The position numbers and the translations under genes were made by a program. Shown here piece by piece: positions 19,412 to 28,967 of a stretch of DNA of 32,000 bases. Position 1 is the stretch's first letter; each line of letters starts with the position of its first letter. The stretch lies in assembly GCF_018398935.1 (NCBI RefSeq), contig NZ_CP074694.1, positions 4,140,001 to 4,172,000 on the forward strand, written 5' to 3'. The notes beneath the pieces are model-generated. The model was not told the DNA's origin, searched no databases, and was given only the letters and a program-made list of their open reading frames with translations. Source of the DNA: Telmatocola sphagniphila. GTDB lineage: Bacteria; Planctomycetota; Planctomycetia; Gemmatales; Gemmataceae.

Positions 19412-20827
19412 ATGTCGATCGGCACTCTCGCTGGCAAGGATCTGAGACTACTACGACGTGATGCGCGCTCGGCCGTGATACTTTTTGTCATGCCCCTGCT
19501 CTTCGTCGCCGTATTGGGAATGGCCGTCGGCGAAGGGTTTGGTCAAAAACCAGACGATCGCATTCGCATTTCCATTCTGAATCTCGATCAAGGCTTACCC
19601 CCAAACCCCGGCCCTTTCCCCAATCGCGCTTGGTCGGAAATCTTCCTGGATGATCTCTCCAACACGGCCGATCTCCGAATCGAACTGATTCCCACCCGCG
19701 AAGAAGCCGAGGCAATGGTTCGCCAGGGAAAGCGCTCCTGCGTTTTGATTCTGGAGCCGGAATTCAGCGTCCGACTTCACGCCTGTTCGTTCCTGTCTAA
19801 AACCGACCCTCCCGAGTTACCCCCTTTGAATCCGCTCTATCGGGATGGGGTGAATGTGAATGAATTGGGACTGACGATCTTGAAAGATCCCACCCAACAG
19901 GTCGCCGCCAGCATCATCGAGCAGGCCGCTCAAGTGACCATGCTGCGGGTTGTAATCCCCTGGATGATCGGGAAAGCCTTCGAGCGGGTTGGGGACGAGA
20001 AATTCATGGCGCGGATGGCCGAGGATATCCCGCTAATGAAACTCGTGCCCGGAAGCGTCCGCAAAGAATTGGGCCCCGGCGTACAGAAAGGTATCGCCAA
20101 GCTTTTCGACCGCTATAACTTCACGGCGAAGACCTGGGCCGGGCTGACCAAGAGTGAGCCTCGGCCCGGTAATCAAGGAAGCTATTCTCCCTATGTCTCG
20201 CAGGATGGCTCCGGCCTCCTGAAGCGAGGCGCTTTACGCTACCAAATCCTGGTTCCCGCCTACACGGTGATGTTTGCTTTTTTTCTGGTTCTGACGGTCG
20301 GCTGGCTGTTCGTGGCCGAGCGCAGACAGGGAACTCTCATCCGACTTCGAGCTGCGCCGATCTATCGCGGAGAAATTCTTCTGGGCAAAATGATCCCCTG
20401 TCTGGTCATCGCGGTCTTTCAGGGCTTTTTTCTTTTGCTTGCCGGAAAAATATTGTTTGGAATGTCCTGGGGCACGCAGCCCTGGGGATTGATTCCAGTG
20501 GTGCTCTCCACCGCTTTCGCAGCAGTCGGTATGTCGATGCTGATTGCGGGACTGGCTCGAACGGAAACGCAGGTCGCTGTTTATGGGACTCTTCTGGTTC
20601 TGGTTCTAGCCGGGATTAGCGGTTCGATGATGCCGCGCGATCTGATGCCGGAAGAGATGAAAAGCTTCAGCTACATCACCCCCCATGCCTGGGCACTGGA
20701 TGCCTATTCGCAACTTCTGGTGAATCCGATTCCCGCCTGGAATGTGATCGGATTATCCTGCGGAGTCTTGTGTCTGTTCGCTTTCGGGTTTATGATGCTG
20801 GCCTGGTGGCGAATCCAATTGGATTAA
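19412..20827 (+). CDS. ABC-2 type transporter permease (YhhJ/YbhS-like, large extracytoplasmic loop after TM1)
   Basis: I prefer the ATG at 19412 (MSIGTLAGKDLRLLRRDARSAVILFVMPLLFVAVLG) to the TTG at 19391. The C-terminal six-TM ABC-2 core is ...ERRQGTLIRLRAAPIYRGEILLGKMIP.... No ATPase gene is adjacent. Confidence 0.85.
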   Translation: MSIGTLAGKDLRLLRRDARSAVILFVMPLLFVAVLGMAVGEGFGQKPDDRIRISILNLDQGLPPNPGPFPNRAWSEIFLDDLSNTADLRIELIPTREEAEAMVRQGKRSCVLILEPEFSVRLHACSFLSKTDPPELPPLNPLYRDGVNVNELGLTILKDPTQQVAASIIEQAAQVTMLRVVIPWMIGKAFERVGDEKFMARMAEDIPLMKLVPGSVRKELGPGVQKGIAKLFDRYNFTAKTWAGLTKSEPRPGNQGSYSPYVSQDGSGLLKRGALRYQILVPAYTVMFAFFLVLTVGWLFVAERRQGTLIRLRAAPIYRGEILLGKMIPCLVIAVFQGFFLLLAGKILFGMSWGTQPWGLIPVVLSTAFAAVGMSMLIAGLARTETQVAVYGTLLVLVLAGISGSMMPRDLMPEEMKSFSYITPHAWALDAYSQLLVNPIPAWNVIGLSCGVLCLFAFGFMMLAWWRIQLD

Positions 20828-20934
20828 AAATTGATGAGCCCGAACTTGGGAGTCCGGCTTTCTATAGCTTATTTTCAACTTCCCCTGGAATAGATGCTCC
20901 CCCATTCCAACAAGTCTTACACCGAGGAGTCTCA

Positions 20935-23900
20935 ATGGTTCACCGCAGAAGAATCGGCTTGGGCTTATGCGTTCTCTTATTTGGATTTCTGAGTTTCGCC
21001 TCGGAAGTCCTCTCGCAACAGGACAAACAGGAAAAAGAAAAAGACAAGGTCCAAGACCAGCAACCGAGCAAGGATAAGAAAACCGAAAAAGCTAAAAATC
21101 CCGATGCGGAAGGCCCCGAAGGCGAGCAGAAAAAAGGGAGGAAGGGCGGTGGGGGAGGCTTCGGCTTCGGTCGCAACAAAGGCGAACCGAAGAAAGATTA
21201 CGGCCCGGGTGCACCGATGCCCCCCGAATTTGTGCGAACGATTTCCTGGCGCTGCCTGGGCCCGGCTGCCATGGGTGGCCGAATTACTGCACTCTCAATT
21301 TTCGAAGCCGACCCAACGACGTACTGGGTCGCCACGGCTTCCGGCGGTCTTCTCAAAACAATCAATAACGGAATCACCTTCGAGCATCAATTCGATCGCG
21401 AGGGCACCGTCAGCATTGGGGATGTGGCCGTGGCTCCCTCCGATCGCAATATCGTCTGGGTTGGTACGGGGGAAGCCAACCCGCGCAATTCCGTCAGCTA
21501 CGGCGATGGCGTCTATAAATCGACCGACGGCGGTAAAACCTGGACCAATATGGGTTTGAAGAAAAGCTTCCAGATCGGGAAGATCGTGATTCATCCCAAG
21601 AACCCCGACATCGTTTATGTCGGCGCACTCGGCCGATGCTACGGGCCCAATGAAGAGCGCGGACTGTTCAAAACTACTGATGGCGGCAAAACCTGGAACA
21701 AGATTCATTACGTCGACGATAAGCACGGCGTCATCGATCTGAAGATGGACCCTACCAATCCAGACACTCTGTATGTGGCGGTCTGGGCCCGACAAAGGGA
21801 TGAGTTCGATAACTACATCGGCGAAACCCTGCCCGATGGTCTGGACAGCTACGATCCTGTATTCAAATGGTCGGAAAAAGCCGGTATCTACAAAACAACC
21901 GATGGTGGTAAGAACTTCAAGAAACTGACGCAGGGACTACCCAGCGGCAAATATGGCCGTGTCGGATTGGATCTCTACCTGAAAGATCCGAAGACCCTGT
22001 TTGCCATCATCGATTGCGACAAAATTGGGATGGGAACCCCGCCCAAAAAAGACAACGCCCCGAAAGAGGCCGCCCCTTATCTCGGCGTTCGTGGGGAAGA
22101 CTCGGAGGATCCGCAAGGCGCCAAGTTGACGAACGTCGTCTCCGGCGGCCCCGCCGACATGGCCGGGTTGAAAATCGAAGACGTCATCACGCAACTCGAT
22201 GGCAAACTGGTCGATTCATACACGACTTTCGTCGAAATTTACCAAAAGCACAAACCGGGCGACAAGCTGAAACTGGCCTACACCAGCAACAACGAAAAGA
22301 AGATGGGCGAAATCACCGTTGGAACTGCTCCTAATCGAGCCGGTGGTGGTGGCGGAGGAGGTGGCGGTGGCCTGGCCAAGGGCGGGAATCCCAAACGGCC
22401 TTATACCGCTTTGTATGCGGGTCAGAGCCCCAACATTCAGGAGGAACAAGGCCCCAATAGCCACGAATATGGTGGCATCTACAAGAGCACCGATGGCGGC
22501 GAAAGCTGGAAACGAATCAACAGTCTCAATCCCCGACCGATGTATTTCAGCGTGATTCGCGTCGATCCCAGCGATGACAAGCATCTCTTTGTTACCGGCG
22601 TCAGCATGTATCACTCCAAAGACGGCGGCAAAACATTTACCTCCGATGCCAGTCGGGGTGTCCATGCCGATCAACATGCCTTGTGGATCGATCCCAAGGA
22701 TGGACGACATATGATCGTCGGCTGCGATGGAGGATTCTACGTCAGCTACGACCGGGCGCAGAATTGGGACCACCTCAACCATATGGCCATAGGCCAGTTC
22801 TACCATGTGGCCGTCAGTCCACAGCAGCCTTACTACGTCTATGGCGGGTTGCAGGATAACGGCTCCTGGGGAGGACCGAGCATCGGACTTAAAGGTGGAA
22901 GCGGACCCATCAACGAAGACTGGCTGAACGTCGGCGGCGGTGATGGCTTCGTGATGCGGGTCGATCAGAACGATCCCGATGTGGTTTATTCGGAAAGTCA
23001 AAACGGCCGCATCTCCTGGCGAAACCTGAAAACTGGCGAACGCGGTAACGTTGCTCCCACGCGCCGTCCCGCCGAGGGTAAGCCGTATCGCTTTAACTGG
23101 AACACTCCTTTTATTCTGAGCAGCTTCAACCAGCGTATCGTTTACTGTGCCGGAGAATATGTCTTCCGTTCCTACAATCGCGGCGAAGGCATGACGGCTA
23201 TTTCCCCGGAAATCACCCGGACTAAACGCGGAAGCGCCACCGCTCTTGCCGAGTCTCCGCTGAAGGCCGATGTGCTCTGGGTGGGTACTGACGACGGGGC
23301 CGTCTGGGTCACCAAAAACGGCGGTAAGGATTGGACGAATGTTACCGAAAAATTCGGCTTGAAGAAACCACTAGGCGTGGCCACTATTGAAGCTTCCCGC
23401 TTCATCGAAGGTCGGGCTTACGTCGCTTTCGATGGTCATCGTTCCGACGACGACGATCCTTATCTGTTCGTTACCGAGGATTACGGCACTACCTGGAAGC
23501 CGATTCGGAATAATCTTCCCATCGGTTCTTCCCGCTGCCTGCGCGAAGATATCGAAAATCCCAACCTGCTCTTCTGCGGCACCGAGTTCTCGATTTTTGC
23601 TTCGACGGATCGCGGCGGCAATTGGGTGAAACTGAATGCCAATCTTCCCACTGTGGCCGTTCACGAAATTGCTTTCCATCCCACTGCGGGGGAAGCGGTC
23701 ATTGCCACACACGGCCGAAGCATATGGATCGCGGATATTTCCGCCCTAAGGCAATTGGCTACAGACGTGATAAAATCGGAAAAACCGGTTTTATTGAAGC
23801 CGAATACGCTCACTCGTTATCCGAGAACGGTCGCCACGGGTGGAACCAATCGTCGCTACGCGGGCGAAAACCCCAAGCCGGGTCTGCCGCTGGTTTACAT

Positions 23901-24204
23901 CCTTCCCAAACGGGCCGAAAAAGTGTCGATAAAAATCTTCGATGTCGAAGGCAAAACGATCAGCGATACCAAGCTTCCGGGATTGGCGGGGATTCACAAA
24001 CAGACCTGGGATGTTTCCAGTAATGGCCGTCCTGTTCCGAGTGGAACCTATCGCGTCGTTCTGCAGGTGGATGACAAGGAATACTCGAAGCTGTTGAAGA
24101 TCGTGGGCGATGCGGCTGCCGGTCCGCGATTTGGTGGCGGCGAGGAAGACGAGGATGAGGATCGGGAAGAAGAAAACGAAATGGAGAAAGATAAGGACAA
24201 GTAA
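20935..24204 (+). CDS. Secreted BNR/Asp-box (sortilin/VPS10-like) beta-propeller protein with inserted PDZ domain and C-terminal Ig-like domain
   Basis: The ATG at 20935 (GAGGAG 6 nt upstream) gives signal peptide MVHRRRIGLGLCVLLFGFLSFASEV. At least 8 Asp-boxes are present (KSTDGGKTW, KTTDGGKTW, KTTDGGKNF, KSTDGGESW, HSKDGGKTF, TKNGGKDW, TEDYGTTW, STDRGGNW). A PDZ-like segment sits at 22078-22323 (...GAKLTNVVSGGPADMAGLKIEDVITQLDG...). A FlgD-Ig-like C-terminus follows (KVSIKIFDVEGKTI...SGTYRVVLQVDD). The track start at 20770 overlaps the upstream gene. Confidence 0.9.
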   Translation: MVHRRRIGLGLCVLLFGFLSFASEVLSQQDKQEKEKDKVQDQQPSKDKKTEKAKNPDAEGPEGEQKKGRKGGGGGFGFGRNKGEPKKDYGPGAPMPPEFVRTISWRCLGPAAMGGRITALSIFEADPTTYWVATASGGLLKTINNGITFEHQFDREGTVSIGDVAVAPSDRNIVWVGTGEANPRNSVSYGDGVYKSTDGGKTWTNMGLKKSFQIGKIVIHPKNPDIVYVGALGRCYGPNEERGLFKTTDGGKTWNKIHYVDDKHGVIDLKMDPTNPDTLYVAVWARQRDEFDNYIGETLPDGLDSYDPVFKWSEKAGIYKTTDGGKNFKKLTQGLPSGKYGRVGLDLYLKDPKTLFAIIDCDKIGMGTPPKKDNAPKEAAPYLGVRGEDSEDPQGAKLTNVVSGGPADMAGLKIEDVITQLDGKLVDSYTTFVEIYQKHKPGDKLKLAYTSNNEKKMGEITVGTAPNRAGGGGGGGGGGLAKGGNPKRPYTALYAGQSPNIQEEQGPNSHEYGGIYKSTDGGESWKRINSLNPRPMYFSVIRVDPSDDKHLFVTGVSMYHSKDGGKTFTSDASRGVHADQHALWIDPKDGRHMIVGCDGGFYVSYDRAQNWDHLNHMAIGQFYHVAVSPQQPYYVYGGLQDNGSWGGPSIGLKGGSGPINEDWLNVGGGDGFVMRVDQNDPDVVYSESQNGRISWRNLKTGERGNVAPTRRPAEGKPYRFNWNTPFILSSFNQRIVYCAGEYVFRSYNRGEGMTAISPEITRTKRGSATALAESPLKADVLWVGTDDGAVWVTKNGGKDWTNVTEKFGLKKPLGVATIEASRFIEGRAYVAFDGHRSDDDDPYLFVTEDYGTTWKPIRNNLPIGSSRCLREDIENPNLLFCGTEFSIFASTDRGGNWVKLNANLPTVAVHEIAFHPTAGEAVIATHGRSIWIADISALRQLATDVIKSEKPVLLKPNTLTRYPRTVATGGTNRRYAGENPKPGLPLVYILPKRAEKVSIKIFDVEGKTISDTKLPGLAGIHKQTWDVSSNGRPVPSGTYRVVLQVDDKEYSKLLKIVGDAAAGPRFGGGEEDEDEDREEENEMEKDKDK

Positions 24205-25506: not shown

Positions 25507-25537
25507 AACGCCAGTCAAAAGACTGGCGTTTTTTTTT
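25507..25537 (+). terminator. Rho-independent terminator
   Basis: The stem is aacgccagtc (25507-25516) and gactggcgtt (25521-25530), a perfect 10 bp with loop aaaa. A 9-T run follows directly. It lies 27 nt after the stop at 25480. Confidence 0.85.
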
Positions 25538-25584
25538 CGTCTGGGGGGATTCCGATTCGCGGGTTTCCTTCCCACTGATCGGCC

Positions 25585-25614
25585 TTGATGAAATAGGCAG
25601 TTTTCCGTTAGGAT
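25585..25614 (+). promoter_or_regulatory. Promoter candidate for the two-gene NTPase cassette
   Basis: TTGATG (25585-25590), an 18-nt spacer, then TAGGAT (25609-25614). It is followed by the strong SD GGAGG (25632-25636), 8 nt before the TTG start at 25645. Pattern matching only. Confidence 0.25.
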
Positions 25615-25644
25615 GCCGGAGCGAACTTCAGGGAGGAACCTCGC

Positions 25645-26355
25645 TTGGCCGACAGGGCAACGAAGCTGATTCTGGATGCGCTCACCCGCGCCAGCACCGA
25701 ACCGGATGGGATGCCGCTCTTTTCGAGCAAGTCCGAAGAGGGGTTATTTCCTTCCACGGCCGTTGCTAAAACTACGGCCGAACGCTGCCGGGAAGACGGT
25801 CTTTTCACTTTTCAAACCTCTTCGGGTAATCGGGAAGTTGCCACACTGAGCGAAAAAGGTCTGCAATATCTCCTCCACCACAGCAATCCGCGACAGGTGC
25901 TGGAAGATTTCGTGCGGATTCTCGAACAGCGCCAGCGGGAAGTGGACAGCATAAGCAATCATCTGCTGGGACTAAAAAAGACTATCGAGGGAATGCATTC
26001 CACGCTGCGAGAATTGAAGGTCAGATTCAGCACACCTTCCTCCGGCACGAACGGACATGTTGCAAAACTGCTGGAAAAATCGGACGATGCCGTCGAGACG
26101 CAACAGATCCTTCTTAAAAACTTGCAAGCCTGGCGAAATGAAAACGCCGCTCAGGATATTCCGTTACCGAAGCTGTATCAACAAACTATGAGCGAGCCCG
26201 ATAAGCTGGGCGCTTTCCATGATGCTTTGCGTAAGCTGCACGAACAGGGCAAGATTGCTTTGCACCCCTGGACCGGTCCGTTATACGCACTTCCGGAACC
26301 CGCTTTCGCCTTGCTCATTGGCCATGAAATCGCGTATTACGCCAACGTCATTTAG
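25645..26355 (+). CDS. Hypothetical helical protein, possibly winged-helix-like N- and C-terminal domains joined by a coiled coil
   Basis: 236-aa ORF with a TTG start supported by GGAGG at 8-nt spacing. The N-terminus is ...AVAKTTAERCREDGLFTFQTSSGNREVATLSEKGLQYLL. The central heptad-like region is QREVDSISNHLLGLKKTIEGMHSTLRELK. The C-terminus is ...LGAFHDALRKLHEQGKIALHPWTG.... I recognise no family. The next gene starts 40 nt downstream. Confidence 0.7.
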   Translation: MADRATKLILDALTRASTEPDGMPLFSSKSEEGLFPSTAVAKTTAERCREDGLFTFQTSSGNREVATLSEKGLQYLLHHSNPRQVLEDFVRILEQRQREVDSISNHLLGLKKTIEGMHSTLRELKVRFSTPSSGTNGHVAKLLEKSDDAVETQQILLKNLQAWRNENAAQDIPLPKLYQQTMSEPDKLGAFHDALRKLHEQGKIALHPWTGPLYALPEPAFALLIGHEIAYYANVI

Positions 26356-26395
26356 AAGAAGCTGAAATCGATCTTCATCAGGGAGGATGCAGATT

Positions 26396-28645
26396 ATGAT
26401 CACCGCAAGCCTGTCGCCCGCGCAATCGGCCCTCGAAGCCCTGCGTCTGGGGGGCAATCCGTTCCGAAATTACTTCGCTCGAAATCCGGATGATGATGTG
26501 TGCGCCCGGTATCACGTCCCAGAACTTTACTCGACCGAACGGGAAATGCTTTTCGCCGTCGTCGACCTCTATCGTCGCGATCCCAATACCCACTCCGAGA
26601 TCGTACCGATTCTGGGGAACAAAGGGGCTGGCAAGACACACTTGCTCCACTCCATCAAGCATGGTAGCGACAGCACCTGGCAGATGCTGGTGACCCCGGG
26701 CGTCTTCCAGAAGGATGCCGACTTCCTCGAATATCTCCTGTTCCAGATCATCGACACCTTACTGAGCGGGGGCGAACAGCGCGGCAAACGGCCCCTCCAA
26801 TACATCGGCGAGATGCTCACCCGACGATTGATGACGCTCGCCCTGCGGGATCTTTCACCGGAAGAGAAGCTCGATCTATTTCCGCCTCCGGGTCTGGGCC
26901 GATGGACTCGAAGGCTAGGCCTGGGCCATAGCCAGGCGCAGGAACGCTGTCAGTGGCTGATGGAGAATCTCAGCGGCACTTCCGGCAGCCGGTCTAATCT
27001 GCCGATCGACCAGGCAATTGAAGAGGCCGGGCTGACGGTCGAGCATGTCTACGAATTCCTGGGGGCCTATCTCGACCGCACCGAAGGGCATAGCACCTCC
27101 GGGCTGATGCGGCGGGCAATCTACCGCTGTGTGGTCAAGGCATTTCTGCTCAAGGATGAGTCAGAACTGGCAGAGTTTCTCACCTACGGCTTCGCCGAAC
27201 TCGATTTCGCGGTACGACCCACTCGTCAGGATCTCGTTCTGGCTCTCTTCAAAACACTCATGGAAGCCTTCCGGACCCTCAAAACGCCGGTGGTCATTGC
27301 CTTCGATCAGCTGGAAGATCTACTCCTGGCCCGACGCACCGATGACGCGCACCAGATCGCCGAGGCCTTCTTTGCGGGCATCGTGCGAATCATGCACCAG
27401 ATCGATGGGCTCTGTTTCCTGGTATTCGCCGAGCGAGGCCTGTGGAACCGCTTCGTTCCCTCACTCGACGGCTACATTCAGGATCGACTCAATAACCCGG
27501 TACACATTCCGCGCTTTGGAACCATCAAGGCGCTGCGTTTGGAAGCCCCTTCAGTCAATCTGGTGAAAAGAGTTGTGGAGGCTCGCATGAAGCCGGTACT
27601 CGCGGATCTTCCAAAAGTTGAAGGAATCCACACTCTGTTCCCGTTTACGAACGAACAGATCGAGCGGATTGCCAAGACCGAACCGACCCTACGTGATATG
27701 CTCCAGCAGTTCCGACAACTGTTCGATCACCTGGCAAATGAAGGCGAAACTTCCCGGCAGCTGGCGGCTCTTTTCGATGAAGCGCCGATCAGTGTAGTGG
27801 AAACTTCGAGCAGCTTCGAGGAAGAAAATCCGACGATCAAGTTCGAAGAAGCGGCCCGAGAATTGTCGAACCGCATCTCCGAGATGGATTCAACCATCGA
27901 AGGGGAATATGTCGTCAAATCGGTCGAAGTCGTGGAAACACCCGCAGCTGTCGAAACTCCTGTGGTTCTGAATGAGCCGGTGATGGCTCCTGTTCCGCTG
28001 ATCTCGCCGAGAACTCTTACTACTGAAATGATGGTCGAGTTGTGGGAGCAGGAACAGCGATCCGCCTTGCGAAAACTCGAACCGGAAGGTGCTCTCACTG
28101 GGGCAACCCGCGAGTTGCAGGCCGGCCTGGGAACTTTCCTGCGAATCTGCCACGAGCATGGTGTAAAATTCGGTCCCTGGCGTTTGCAGCACGTGGTGAC
28201 CGAGTATACCTTTGGCGATCACCCCACTTACGGGTGTGCGACGCTCGCGCATTGGGCCTGCAAAGATTCGCAACCCTGGCGCATCGGTATCGGCCTATTC
28301 ATGGCTCGGGCGGCAGGCAAACCGAAGGATCTGGAGATCAAACTGTCGCTGATGGAAGTCGAACCGGCTATCGTCGATCATCTGATTCTTTTGCGTCCGG
28401 AAGATGATTTGGCCATCACCGGTAAGAGTAAGACACTCTGGAATGAATCGGAGAAACGTGGTCGACATGCCCGCATGGAACCGGTGAGCGTGGATACATT
28501 CGCCATGCTCTACGCCTTCCCCCGCTGGGTCACGGCTTTGATGGAAGCACTGCCCGAAGGAAGTTCTCTGCCGAATCTAGCTGATCTGATTCAGGAATAT
28601 TGCGAAAAACTTCTGGAACAGGTCTGCATGCCCGTGCAGTCTTGA
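26396..28645 (+). CDS. Large P-loop NTPase (ORC/Cdc6- or STAND-like AAA+ features) with uncharacterised C-terminal half
   Basis: I prefer the ATG at 26396 (GGAGG 9 nt upstream) to 26387. Walker A is GNKGAGKT at 26615-26638. The Walker-B-like motif VVIAFDQLED is at 27290-27319. A sensor/lid-like stretch reads LCFLVFAERG...LFPFTNEQIERIA. An acidic low-complexity linker (…SSSFEEENPTIKFEE…VEVVETPAAVETPVV…) is followed by a roughly 200-aa C-terminal domain. Confidence 0.85.
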   Translation: MITASLSPAQSALEALRLGGNPFRNYFARNPDDDVCARYHVPELYSTEREMLFAVVDLYRRDPNTHSEIVPILGNKGAGKTHLLHSIKHGSDSTWQMLVTPGVFQKDADFLEYLLFQIIDTLLSGGEQRGKRPLQYIGEMLTRRLMTLALRDLSPEEKLDLFPPPGLGRWTRRLGLGHSQAQERCQWLMENLSGTSGSRSNLPIDQAIEEAGLTVEHVYEFLGAYLDRTEGHSTSGLMRRAIYRCVVKAFLLKDESELAEFLTYGFAELDFAVRPTRQDLVLALFKTLMEAFRTLKTPVVIAFDQLEDLLLARRTDDAHQIAEAFFAGIVRIMHQIDGLCFLVFAERGLWNRFVPSLDGYIQDRLNNPVHIPRFGTIKALRLEAPSVNLVKRVVEARMKPVLADLPKVEGIHTLFPFTNEQIERIAKTEPTLRDMLQQFRQLFDHLANEGETSRQLAALFDEAPISVVETSSSFEEENPTIKFEEAARELSNRISEMDSTIEGEYVVKSVEVVETPAAVETPVVLNEPVMAPVPLISPRTLTTEMMVELWEQEQRSALRKLEPEGALTGATRELQAGLGTFLRICHEHGVKFGPWRLQHVVTEYTFGDHPTYGCATLAHWACKDSQPWRIGIGLFMARAAGKPKDLEIKLSLMEVEPAIVDHLILLRPEDDLAITGKSKTLWNESEKRGRHARMEPVSVDTFAMLYAFPRWVTALMEALPEGSSLPNLADLIQEYCEKLLEQVCMPVQS

Positions 28646-28651
28646 TGAGCT

Positions 28652-28681
28652 ATCGGGAAGAGTGGAAAAGCTCTTCCCGAT
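28652..28681. terminator. Hairpin in the 43-nt gap between convergent genes (candidate bidirectional terminator)
   Basis: Perfect 11-bp inverted repeat: atcgggaagag (28652-28662) and ctcttcccgat (28671-28681), with an 8-nt loop. There is no clear U-tract on either side. Confidence 0.5.
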
Positions 28682-28688
28682 GAATTCG

Positions 28689-28967
28689 TCACATGCTCCA
28701 GGGATAAACTTGCTGTTTCCTATTGCAAGCCGGGCAGTAACAGACCCGGCTATTTTTATAAGCCATGTACCAGGGCGCGAGCATGGCACAGGCTATTCCG
28801 TAAAGGATGAAGCCGGCTAAGTCGGAAACGTAGAAGTGCAGCACTATCCCCAGCCCAATCAAGAATGTGCTCACTGCGAGGATGCCACCTGGGGTATCGA
28901 AGATCTCTAACGGGCCAGGATTCAACCAGTTTAACGGGAATTTGCGGCGGCATTTCGGGCAACGCAT
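28689..28967 (-). CDS. Small membrane protein with split zinc-ribbon (CxxC ... 2 TM ... CxxC)
   Basis: 92-aa protein MRCPKCRRKF...GGILAVSTFLIGLGIVLHFYV..LAGFILYGIACAMLAPWYMAY..RVCYCPACNRK. It has two hydrophobic helices flanked by CPKC and CPAC. Its own AT-rich 168-nt upstream gap contains TATAAT on the minus strand (29111-29106). Confidence 0.65.
   Translation of the reverse strand: MRCPKCRRKFPLNWLNPGPLEIFDTPGGILAVSTFLIGLGIVLHFYVSDLAGFILYGIACAMLAPWYMAYKNSRVCYCPACNRKQQVYPWSM

Follow-up and report, generated by a model that had tools for sequence, protein, structure and literature searches.

A strictly paired operon of Gemmatales encoding a predicted STAND/ORC-Cdc6-type ATPase and a double winged-helix protein

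Gene structure and transcription signals of the operon

The subject of this work is a two-gene operon on the chromosome of Telmatocola sphagniphila (Gemmataceae, Planctomycetota), which was analyzed within a stretch of 32,000 nucleotides of contig NZ_CP074694.1, in the following referred to as the window. The first gene encodes a small protein of 236 amino acids (aa) and the second, separated from it by 40 nt and located on the same strand, a P-loop NTPase of 749 aa. Both products are identical to NCBI proteins which are annotated as "hypothetical." A first-pass annotation, established from the DNA letters alone, had described a cassette of two co-directional genes, preceded by a strong intrinsic terminator, a promoter-like element and a consensus Shine-Dalgarno (SD) sequence with a TTG start and followed by a perfect 11-bp hairpin in front of a convergent gene. 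All of these elements were recovered at the respective positions (Table 1). For comparison, GTDB was scanned with one genome per species. This yielded 221 genomes with a close relative, 80 of which were retrieved for locus analysis.

The left boundary of the cassette is the terminator of an esterase gene (Abhydrolase_2, Pfam). It consists of a 10-bp stem (25507-25530) with a 4-nt loop and a subsequent T9 run and has a folding energy of -17 kcal/mol (z = -4.5); none of 200 shuffled sequences was equally stable. The sigma-70-like promoter was not picked up by a generic promoter scan. A matching motif (TTG[AC]NN-N16-18-TANNNT) was present 30-65 nt upstream of the small gene in 45 of 69 orthologous loci, compared to 1.3 +/- 1.1 in shuffles. 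The small gene is preceded by the SD sequence AGGGAGGA, its homologs begin at the same residue as the TTG start, and SD-like GGAGG or GGAAG sequences are found at the equivalent position in the orthologs. The gap between both genes carries a second AGGGAGGA; an alternative ATG at 26387 is the less likely start of the ATPase because it overlaps this SD sequence. On the right side the cassette is bounded by the hairpin (-22.2 kcal/mol, z = -5.8) between the ATPase gene and a convergent gene of 92 aa. As neither strand shows a U-tract beside it, the hairpin does not qualify as a canonical intrinsic terminator. Of 76 orthologous loci, 43 have a stable hairpin in the first 70 nt past the ATPase stop. 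The conserved promoter motif and the recurrent downstream hairpin indicate that the cassette is a self-contained transcription unit.

In many Gemmatales loci (e.g., L071, L035, L025) the ATPase gene is followed by remarkably long perfect hairpins (17-24 bp), whose sequences are unrelated and which show no obvious U-tract. Some of them are built of short tandem repeats (CAGAATG three times in L071). Moreover, the 5' untranslated regions of the small gene in Fimbriiglobus-like loci (L024, L031, L048, L051) contain a GC-rich hairpin with an ACGGA(C) loop, and CACGGAAGC, which resembles this loop, occurs at the ribosome-binding site. Together they form a possible candidate for a translational control element. 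A search against Rfam revealed neither a riboswitch nor a leader. A match to group-II-intron domains D1-D4 inside the ATPase coding sequence (27714-27919, + strand) was dismissed as a chance match (19.8 bits, E 0.43).

Table 1. Features of the operon, given in positions of the window.
Feature	Position	Strand	Remarks
Intrinsic terminator of the upstream esterase gene	25507..25539	+	Folding energy, shuffles
Sigma-70-like promoter	25585..25614	+	-35 TTGATG 25585-25590, spacer 17-18 nt, -10 TAGGAT ~25609-25614
Shine-Dalgarno AGGGAGGA of the small gene	25630..25637	+	7 nt before TTG start 25645
Small partner gene, 236 aa, KIH39_16650	25645..26355	+	Identical to NCBI protein
Second Shine-Dalgarno AGGGAGGA	26380..26387	+	8 nt before ATG 26396
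NTPase gene (predicted AAA+, STAND/ORC-Cdc6-type, AAA_16-like), 749 aa, KIH39_16655	26396..28645	+	Identical to NCBI protein
N-terminal NPF motif, aa 21-23	26456..26464	+	P22, F23 invariant in the whole family
Walker A GNKGAGKT, aa 74-81	26615..26638	+	G74, G77, G79, K80 invariant
All-helical insert of ~170 aa (aa ~130-296)	26783..27283	+	Between helix alpha-2 and Walker B strand; AlphaFold2 pLDDT 75-96; R239 invariant
Walker B VVIAFDQLED, aa 299-308	27290..27319	+	D304, E307 invariant
R364, candidate arginine finger	27485..27487	+	Invariant; just before predicted strand 5
Helical lid, aa ~386-461	27551..27778	+	FPFTNEQIERIA motif aa 415-426; invariant R433 = candidate sensor 2
Acidic disordered linker, aa ~462-540	27779..28015	+	Variable length; AlphaFold2, ortholog comparison
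C-terminal alpha/beta domain, ~200 aa	28016..28642	+	Conserved W550, YG (612-613), GxGxPxDLxxKL
Perfect 11-bp hairpin, 8-nt loop	28652..28681	.	Arms 28652-28662 and 28671-28681; right cassette boundary

Pairing, distribution and distant relatives

All of the 80 retrieved genomes are of the Gemmatales type and include Fimbriiglobus, Limnoglobus, Zavarzinella, Gemmata, Urbifossiella, Frigoriglobus and unnamed Gemmataceae or Gemmatales. Wherever upstream DNA was available in Gemmatales loci (79 of 79), the ATPase gene is immediately preceded by the small gene on the same strand, so that the two genes co-occur, adjacent and co-oriented, well beyond the Telmatocola genome. The close relatives of the ATPase share 58-72% identity. 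Comparison of the same genome pairs revealed 65% identity for the ATPase, 55% for FolC and 46% for the small protein. 75 of the 80 records bear planctomycete titles, the remaining five (L034, L038, L039, L066, L067) are named "uncultured Alcaligenaceae bacterium" and carry a pair of the Gemmataceae type with 57-61% identity; these labels of metagenome-assembled genomes are probably wrong.

None of the other 21 genes of the window accompanies the pair elsewhere. The commonest neighbor, present in 24 of 81 loci (including L007, L030, and L054), is a gene for a Mur ligase of the FolC type which immediately follows the ATPase gene; in Telmatocola its place is taken by the convergent zinc-ribbon gene. 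The GC content of the window is flat (0.49-0.56), and the window contains no tRNA, no mobile gene and no anomaly in composition. By tblastn no relative was detected in 72,556 plasmids or 50,697 phages, and pattern scans of IMG/VR did not reveal one either. With no plasmid, phage or viral copy and an ordinary composition, a mobile element was rejected. The first-pass annotation had named a lineage-specific housekeeping pair as one option, which fits the occurrence in the Gemmatales species genomes, an ATPase stricter than FolC, the chromosomal location and the ordinary composition. The finding that it had named as a refutation, a strictly conserved core syntenic block with a housekeeping distribution, is borne out in one part: the phyletic distribution is housekeeping-like, whereas the flanks vary.

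An exhaustive profile search of 1.84 billion representatives enabled the detection of 453 ATPase relatives, many of them full-length proteins of 660-720 aa at 22-38% identity, and 25 further loci (L081-L105) were added to the 80. A metagenome scan with alignment A5 gave 16 loci. A profile search of a set of 5.8 billion proteins with the distant alignment returned seven proteins and was swamped by common words. The pairing extends to these distant relatives as well: a homolog of the small partner was found directly upstream in all 15 distant loci with enough upstream DNA, with pairwise E-values of 1e-21 to 1e-23 at 26-28% identity. In most cases the stop codon of this homolog overlaps with the ATPase start, i.e., the two genes are translationally coupled.

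Moreover, a third gene follows the ATPase immediately 3' in 20 loci (19 by hmmsearch and additionally L105), often overlapping its stop. These are all loci of the non-Gemmatales type with enough downstream DNA, with exception of the intermediate locus L104. The product of this gene has 200-246 aa, of which about 140 aa form a soluble, beta-rich domain; one or two transmembrane helices make up the C-terminus. It has no match in Pfam, PADLOC or NCBIfam. The gene was not found in Gemmatales-type loci or in L104, whose ATPase (P0246) is 38% identical. A third gene hidden in the Gemmatales loci was likewise rejected, as hmmsearch --max gave nothing at E <= 10.

The flanks of the distant loci mostly encode housekeeping functions (pseudouridine synthase, DHOD-B, ETF, DHQ synthase, DprA, Dus, PurU) and also planctomycete-specific families (PSCyt1/2, PSD1, BBP7, DUF1554). 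Pfam matches aggregated over 48 neighbors contained no recurrent family. One distant locus adjoins McrBC and a DEAD/HIT/DUF3427 helicase, another one transposases and ThiF/UQ_con genes. Wherever the flanks hint at taxonomy, they point to Planctomycetota, and from the adjacent PSCyt1, PSD1, BBP7 and DUF1554 genes we infer that the distant relatives belong to this phylum. One distant type (P0399) is labeled "Gemmataceae bacterium" by NCBI, thus paralogy inside the order may exist.

Domain structure of the ATPase and its partner

For the ATPase, invariance was scored in 50 relatives at 22-38% identity. P22-F23, G74/G77/G79/K80, R239, D304, E307, R364, P416, R433 and W550 are invariant in all of them. 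The NPF motif is part of a block of 25 aa which is invariant across the Gemmatales. The first-pass annotation had recognized Walker A and Walker-B-like motifs about 220 aa apart, an AAA+ lid-like motif, an acidic disordered linker and a C-terminal domain of about 200 aa that it could not assign, and all of these stand. The distance from K80 to D304 amounts to 224 aa, and FPF (415-417) in the lid is conserved with P416 invariant. The linker has a pLDDT (the confidence measure of the structure prediction) below 50 at aa 462-537, a length of 47-208 aa across orthologs and a median net charge of -14.5. For the C-terminal domain no relative outside the family was detectable in PDB or Pfam. A PD-(D/E)xK nuclease, with which its order of elements is compatible, was rejected since the would-be catalytic residues are not conserved and there is no PDB or Pfam signal. 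Ten cysteines and histidines (C36, H40, C585, H586, H588, H599, H609, H619, C622, C744) are invariant or nearly so in 40 Gemmatales orthologs (H586 in at least 90%) and not conserved in the wider family. They may constitute a lineage-specific metal site joining the N-terminal peptide and the C-terminal domain.

The Walker B pattern hhhhFDxLE corresponds to D-x-x-E without the usual DE pair. It is reminiscent of STAND/NACHT NTPases, which behave as slow switches, and less so of AAA+ motors. The secondary structure in the AlphaFold2 (AF2) model is compatible with an AAA+ core. The predicted order is strand 1 and P-loop (69-81), strand 2 (97-99), helix 2 (110-124), the insert (~130-296), the Walker B strand (299-302), strand 4 (340-345), R364 in front of strand 5 (369-371) and the helical lid (387-461). 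The model was built from 40 close orthologs; a more diverse alignment would be the better input.

When the 50 members were scanned singly, 48 matched Pfam AAA_16 (E < 0.01, best 7e-10), 41 AAA_22, 16 NACHT and seven an ORC-CDC6-like family, and a few matched nSTAND5/6, TniB or KAP. The classic AAA family (PF00004) was never among the matches. One member (P0284) reaches 38.4 bits against AAA_16, and in another (P0339) the profile alignment spans the insert through to the Walker B strand. NCBIfam, PADLOC and PHROGs gave nothing significant for the ATPase, and a PDB sequence-profile search gave matches at the P-loop level only. The "no recognizable family" of the first-pass annotation is in agreement with this, as the only matches are sub-threshold or marginal ones to AAA_16, AAA_22, NACHT and ORC-CDC6-like families. 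Judged from sequence, the ATPase is most likely an AAA+ NTPase of the STAND/ORC-Cdc6 type, detectable at the level of Pfam AAA_16 only. The hallmarks of this clade listed in PMC12839542 include a helical insert behind strand 2 (helix-extension-helix or initiator-specific motif) and an arginine before strand 5. On the basis of the model, the ATPase provisionally fits all three hallmarks given there.

Features shared with the clade (e.g., MalT, AfsR, Orc1/Cdc6) are an N-terminal "HVPE...E..L" helix before the GxxGxGKT P-loop, a Walker B of the form hhhhD in which position +3 is acidic, and an FPF/PY-like motif at the opening of the predicted helical lid. In the low-confidence model, strand 2 is moreover followed by the helical insert and strand 5 preceded by the conserved arginine, which are candidates for further common features. 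The differences are equally distinct. The insert comprises about 170 aa instead of a short helix-extension-helix and is thus about 10 times the usual size of the post-strand-2 insert. ORC/Cdc6/STAND proteins carry a winged helix in cis after the lid, whereas no winged-helix signal was found in the ATPase behind aa 461, where the disordered acidic chain and the unique C-terminal domain of 200 aa follow instead. Furthermore, it lacks repeat sensor domains (TPR, WD40, LRR), a fused effector and a helix-turn-helix (HTH).

In the STAND-related KAP NTPases, too, Walker A and Walker B are separated by a large insertion, which in their case is made of transmembrane helices, and one of the 50 members gave a weak match to KAP_NTPase (E 0.006). 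A Kyte-Doolittle scan detected no hydrophobic segment in the insert or anywhere else in the ATPase (none >= 1.6). The insert is soluble and the assignment to KAP NTPases was therefore rejected. In distant members, a single curated model, NF047389 ("P-loop ATPase, Sll1717 family"), gave an alignment that runs from Walker A past Walker B. The alignment covers aa 69-364 and profile positions 22-241 of 454, and with 15-24 bits at a cut-off of 75 these distant relatives are not members. The weak match recurs at 22-24 bits in L099 (10001-12058) and L083 (2772-4844). Among the curated families, Sll1717 is perhaps the closest one, and its Walker motifs may lie far apart as well. No paper mentioning the ATPase family or Sll1717 was found in the literature. 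The ATPase is of a known kind at the superfamily level. Its family is undescribed, and so are the giant insert, the C-terminal domain, the obligate partner with its two winged helices and the membrane subunit found in relatives.

The small partner is built of a winged helix (aa 1-79), a helix of 48 residues (82-129), a disordered linker (134-144), a further helix (146-167) and a second winged helix (174-235). The AF2 model has a pLDDT of 88 and, together with the fold matches, bears out the two helix-rich, winged-helix-like modules bridged by a coiled coil which the first-pass annotation had suspected, the bridge being the long helix. Foldseek matched the N-terminal half to MarR, PadR and Sso10a-type proteins (Sso10a-2) and the rest to generic winged helices, including the C-terminal winged helix of ScpA. 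All PDB matches have E >= 0.005, and PDB and BFVD gave matches at the generic winged-helix level only. The family profile found weak similarity to MarR (3f3x, E 0.0015) and a PadR-like protein (3elk, E 0.0049) within a range of 0.0015-0.17 for PDB profiles, and there was no match to Pfam PadR or MarR at E <= 1. As in proteins of the PadR, MarR and Sso10a type, which have a C-terminal dimerization helix, a winged helix is followed by a long helix in the N-terminal half, and some homologs have been named PadR by JGI annotators. The long helix probably mediates dimerization in the small protein, too. In contrast to PadR and MarR, it has a conserved "PGLFP" loop in place of helix 2, a second winged helix and an obligate pairing with the ATPase. 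The strongest conservation throughout the family lies in the third helix and the wing of the C-terminal winged helix, with the family-invariant helix GxFHDxLRxL and the wing HPWTGPLYxLPEP...GHEIAYYA. This domain is acidic, and its highly conserved helix and wing look like a protein-docking surface and not like a DNA reader. On the + strand of L084 (3882-9590), a contig with 70% GC, an open reading frame (ORF) of 1902 aa ends in a homolog of the small partner, with no Pfam match in the rest; it may be a true giant fusion or an ORF artifact of high GC content.

Two known systems resemble the pair as a whole. BrxC of BREX and BREX-related systems joins an ORC/Cdc6-type ATPase with winged HTH, alpha+beta, winged HTH and coiled-coil modules (PMC12839542). 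The kinds of modules are alike, with the difference that they are split here into the ATPase with its alpha/beta domain and a protein of winged helix, coiled coil and winged helix. Neither operon protein has a PADLOC match to BrxC/PglY (DUF499), PglX, PglZ and BrxL are absent from the locus with its unrelated flanking genes, the ATPase has 749 aa as against about 1200 aa, and the phyletic pattern is core-like. The resemblance to BrxC is architectural only. The second system are the kleisins (ScpA, MukF/MksF, Rad21), with which the small protein shares a length of about 240 aa, the succession of a folded module at the N-terminus, a flexible linker and a winged helix at the C-terminus, a gene beside that of its ATPase and weak fold matches to the C-terminal winged helix of ScpA and to Rad21. 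Here, the partner ATPase is not of the SMC/ABC type and the matches stay at the generic winged-helix level (E >= 0.06). No match to SMC_N, AAA_23, AAA_15 or AAA_21 and no signature motif was found in the ATPase, which is thus not of the ABC type, and an SMC/kleisin pair was rejected.

A possible ATP-gated complex, its alternatives and the neighboring genes

The cassette appears to be an autonomous, vertically inherited operon for a two-subunit ATP-switch complex which is so far specific for Planctomycetota. The strict pairing over deep divergence, the translational coupling, the conservation above that of a folate enzyme and the chromosomal, non-island context with absence from mobile-element collections all speak for a stoichiometric complex whose role in the cell is conserved, and not for a mobile defense cassette. 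The explanation we favor, which we hold tentatively and rate slightly short of an even bet, is an ATP-gated, probably DNA-associated regulatory or organizing complex which would have been membrane-tethered in its ancestral three-gene form. It is an attractive idea that the winged helix normally present in cis in ORC/Cdc6/STAND ATPases is supplied in trans by the small partner. The conserved C-terminal winged helix of the latter would dock on the ATPase in place of the one missing in cis, and the PadR/MarR-like N-terminal winged helix would contact DNA. ATP binding might then lead to an oligomerization through the invariant R364, and this might decide whether the complex assembles on its target or is released from it. 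Such an arrangement would represent a split version of STAND regulators like MalT and AfsR or of ORC-like DNA-bound assemblies. In most relatives outside the Gemmatales, the third, translationally coupled subunit would tether the complex to the membrane, and the Gemmatales would have lost it. The role would be a housekeeping or regulatory one and not that of a mobile defense.

Several observations weigh against this explanation. The Telmatocola ATPase itself matches AAA_16 (besides AAA_22) with 30.4 bits, which is below the gathering score of 32.6. Its AF2 model is poor (mean pLDDT 64, core 55-60), so that the strand numbering and the assignments of arginine finger and sensor 2 are provisional, and Foldseek of the model against PDB gave weak AAA+ matches only (E >= 0.027). 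The small partner is not basic (pI ~6.3; N-terminal winged helix about +2, C-terminal about -4), hence both winged helices could be protein-protein modules. There is no conserved neighboring target gene around the pair, which makes a role as a local transcription factor unlikely. The 221 genomes are a count of carriers only, with no denominator of Gemmatales genomes lacking the pair. The gene structure, motifs, folds at the domain level, pairing, distribution, conservation and absence from mobile elements are shown here; what we infer is that the two proteins form a complex, bind DNA and act as a switch, and also their biological role.

An NTPase with a small adaptor and no annotated effector had suggested a conflict or defense system in the first-pass annotation. 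In such an anti-phage system the invader would be sensed by the STAND-like NTPase, with the winged-helix protein serving as an adaptor or for reading nucleic acids. The membrane protein would be an abortive-infection effector, and the Gemmatales pair a degenerate or repurposed form. The STAND/NACHT-like features of the ATPase, the small transmembrane protein translationally coupled in relatives, the variable neighborhood, the two distant loci with defense-like or mobile neighbors (McrBC and helicase; transposases and ThiF/UQ_con) and the absence of an assigned function would all suit it. We nevertheless consider a defense role unlikely. None of the three proteins has a significant match in PADLOC 2.0, the NCBIfam antiphage models or PHROGs (best 9-18 bits, P-loop or coiled-coil), and the first-pass annotation could match the pair to no named defense system either. 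Defense genes are typically patchy and faster-evolving; the pair shows the opposite pattern, with a distribution over 221 species genomes of one order which is not patchy. The conservation of the ATPase above that of FolC, the chromosomal non-island context and the absence from plasmid, phage and viral collections argue against a mobile defense cassette, and most flanks are housekeeping genes. No effector is recognizable in the window or in the Gemmatales loci, where the pair is kept under strong constraint without one; the relatives encode the transmembrane protein.

The housekeeping-like conservation and the membrane anchor of the relatives would also be compatible with a chromosome or nucleoid machine, i.e., an ORC/Cdc6-like DNA loader with a Cdt1/WhiP-like cofactor or a kleisin-like adaptor bridging two ATPases, active in replication, segregation or DNA-membrane tethering of the FtsZ-less budding planctomycetes. 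The ORC-CDC6-like matches in seven of 50 members, weak P-loop matches to Orc1, DnaA, Hda and DnaI, the insert at the position of the initiator-clade insert, the partner layout of winged helix, helix, disordered linker and winged helix, and weak fold matches to the ScpA C-terminal winged helix (4i99_C, TM-score 0.82 on target), Rad21, ScpB and the chromatin protein Sso10a point in this direction. However, all matches have E >= 0.005 and reflect generic winged-helix or P-loop similarity, the ATPase is AAA_16-like and no SMC/ABC head, both proteins are acidic to neutral, and within the window the pair is linked neither to dnaA, par or smc nor to repeats of the origin type. We regard this machine as improbable. 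A protein-remodeling or assembly chaperone, in which the AAA+ hexamer would have a protein as its substrate and no DNA would be involved, with the double winged-helix protein as adaptor and the membrane protein as client or anchor, is very unlikely. Foldseek indeed matched the ATPase model best to the classic-clade unfoldases Cdc48, Msp1 and Thorase, the two winged-helix domains lack a basic character, and the most conserved surface of the partner, the helix and wing of its C-terminal winged helix, suggests a protein interface. These fold matches come from a low-confidence model with E >= 0.027 and TM-scores of at most 0.15 on the query, sequence profiles favor AAA_16, NACHT and ORC over classic AAA, and the catalytic DE pair that unfoldases typically have is missing from the Walker B.

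Planctomycetes divide without FtsZ and have unusual membranes and nucleoids. A far-reaching explanation, which we judge decidedly improbable, would be a planctomycete-specific, membrane-tethered ATP switch of STAND/ORC-like ATPase, kleisin-like double winged-helix bridge and ancestral membrane anchor, which would organize nucleoid or membrane (e.g., DNA-membrane attachment or FtsZ-independent budding) and be essential in Gemmatales. To our knowledge, most of the conserved lineage-specific genes of planctomycetes have no assigned function. Among these the operon is one of the better-defined candidates because of its strictly linked pair (a trio in other lineages), a constraint above that of a folate-pathway enzyme and an undescribed switch-type ATPase family with an apparent in-trans winged-helix adaptor. 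It represents a well-delimited, strongly constrained conserved hypothetical system for planctomycete cell biology, for which a surprising function is so far not indicated. If the split-STAND arrangement were true, it would be a natural system separating the nucleotide switch from the winged-helix latch. For defense mining the pair is a useful negative example: the combination of an NTPase, a small adaptor and missing annotation is insufficient where conservation and phyletic pattern argue otherwise.

Further genes of the window near the pair encode an ABC-2 permease, a sortilin/BNR-PDZ protein, the esterase, a glycosyltransferase, HPRT, DJ-1 and a dipeptidase. The product of the convergent 92-aa gene (28689-28967, - strand) is a split zinc ribbon (CxxC ... 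CxxC), the halves of which enclose two predicted transmembrane helices. It has a weak zf-LITAF-like match (E 0.026), and the gene lies beside the pair in no other locus. The sortilin-like protein of 1144 aa (20770-24204, + strand) combines a sortilin/Vps10-BNR propeller, a PDZ and a FlgD-Ig domain with a poly-Gly run and a tail rich in Lys, Glu and Asp.

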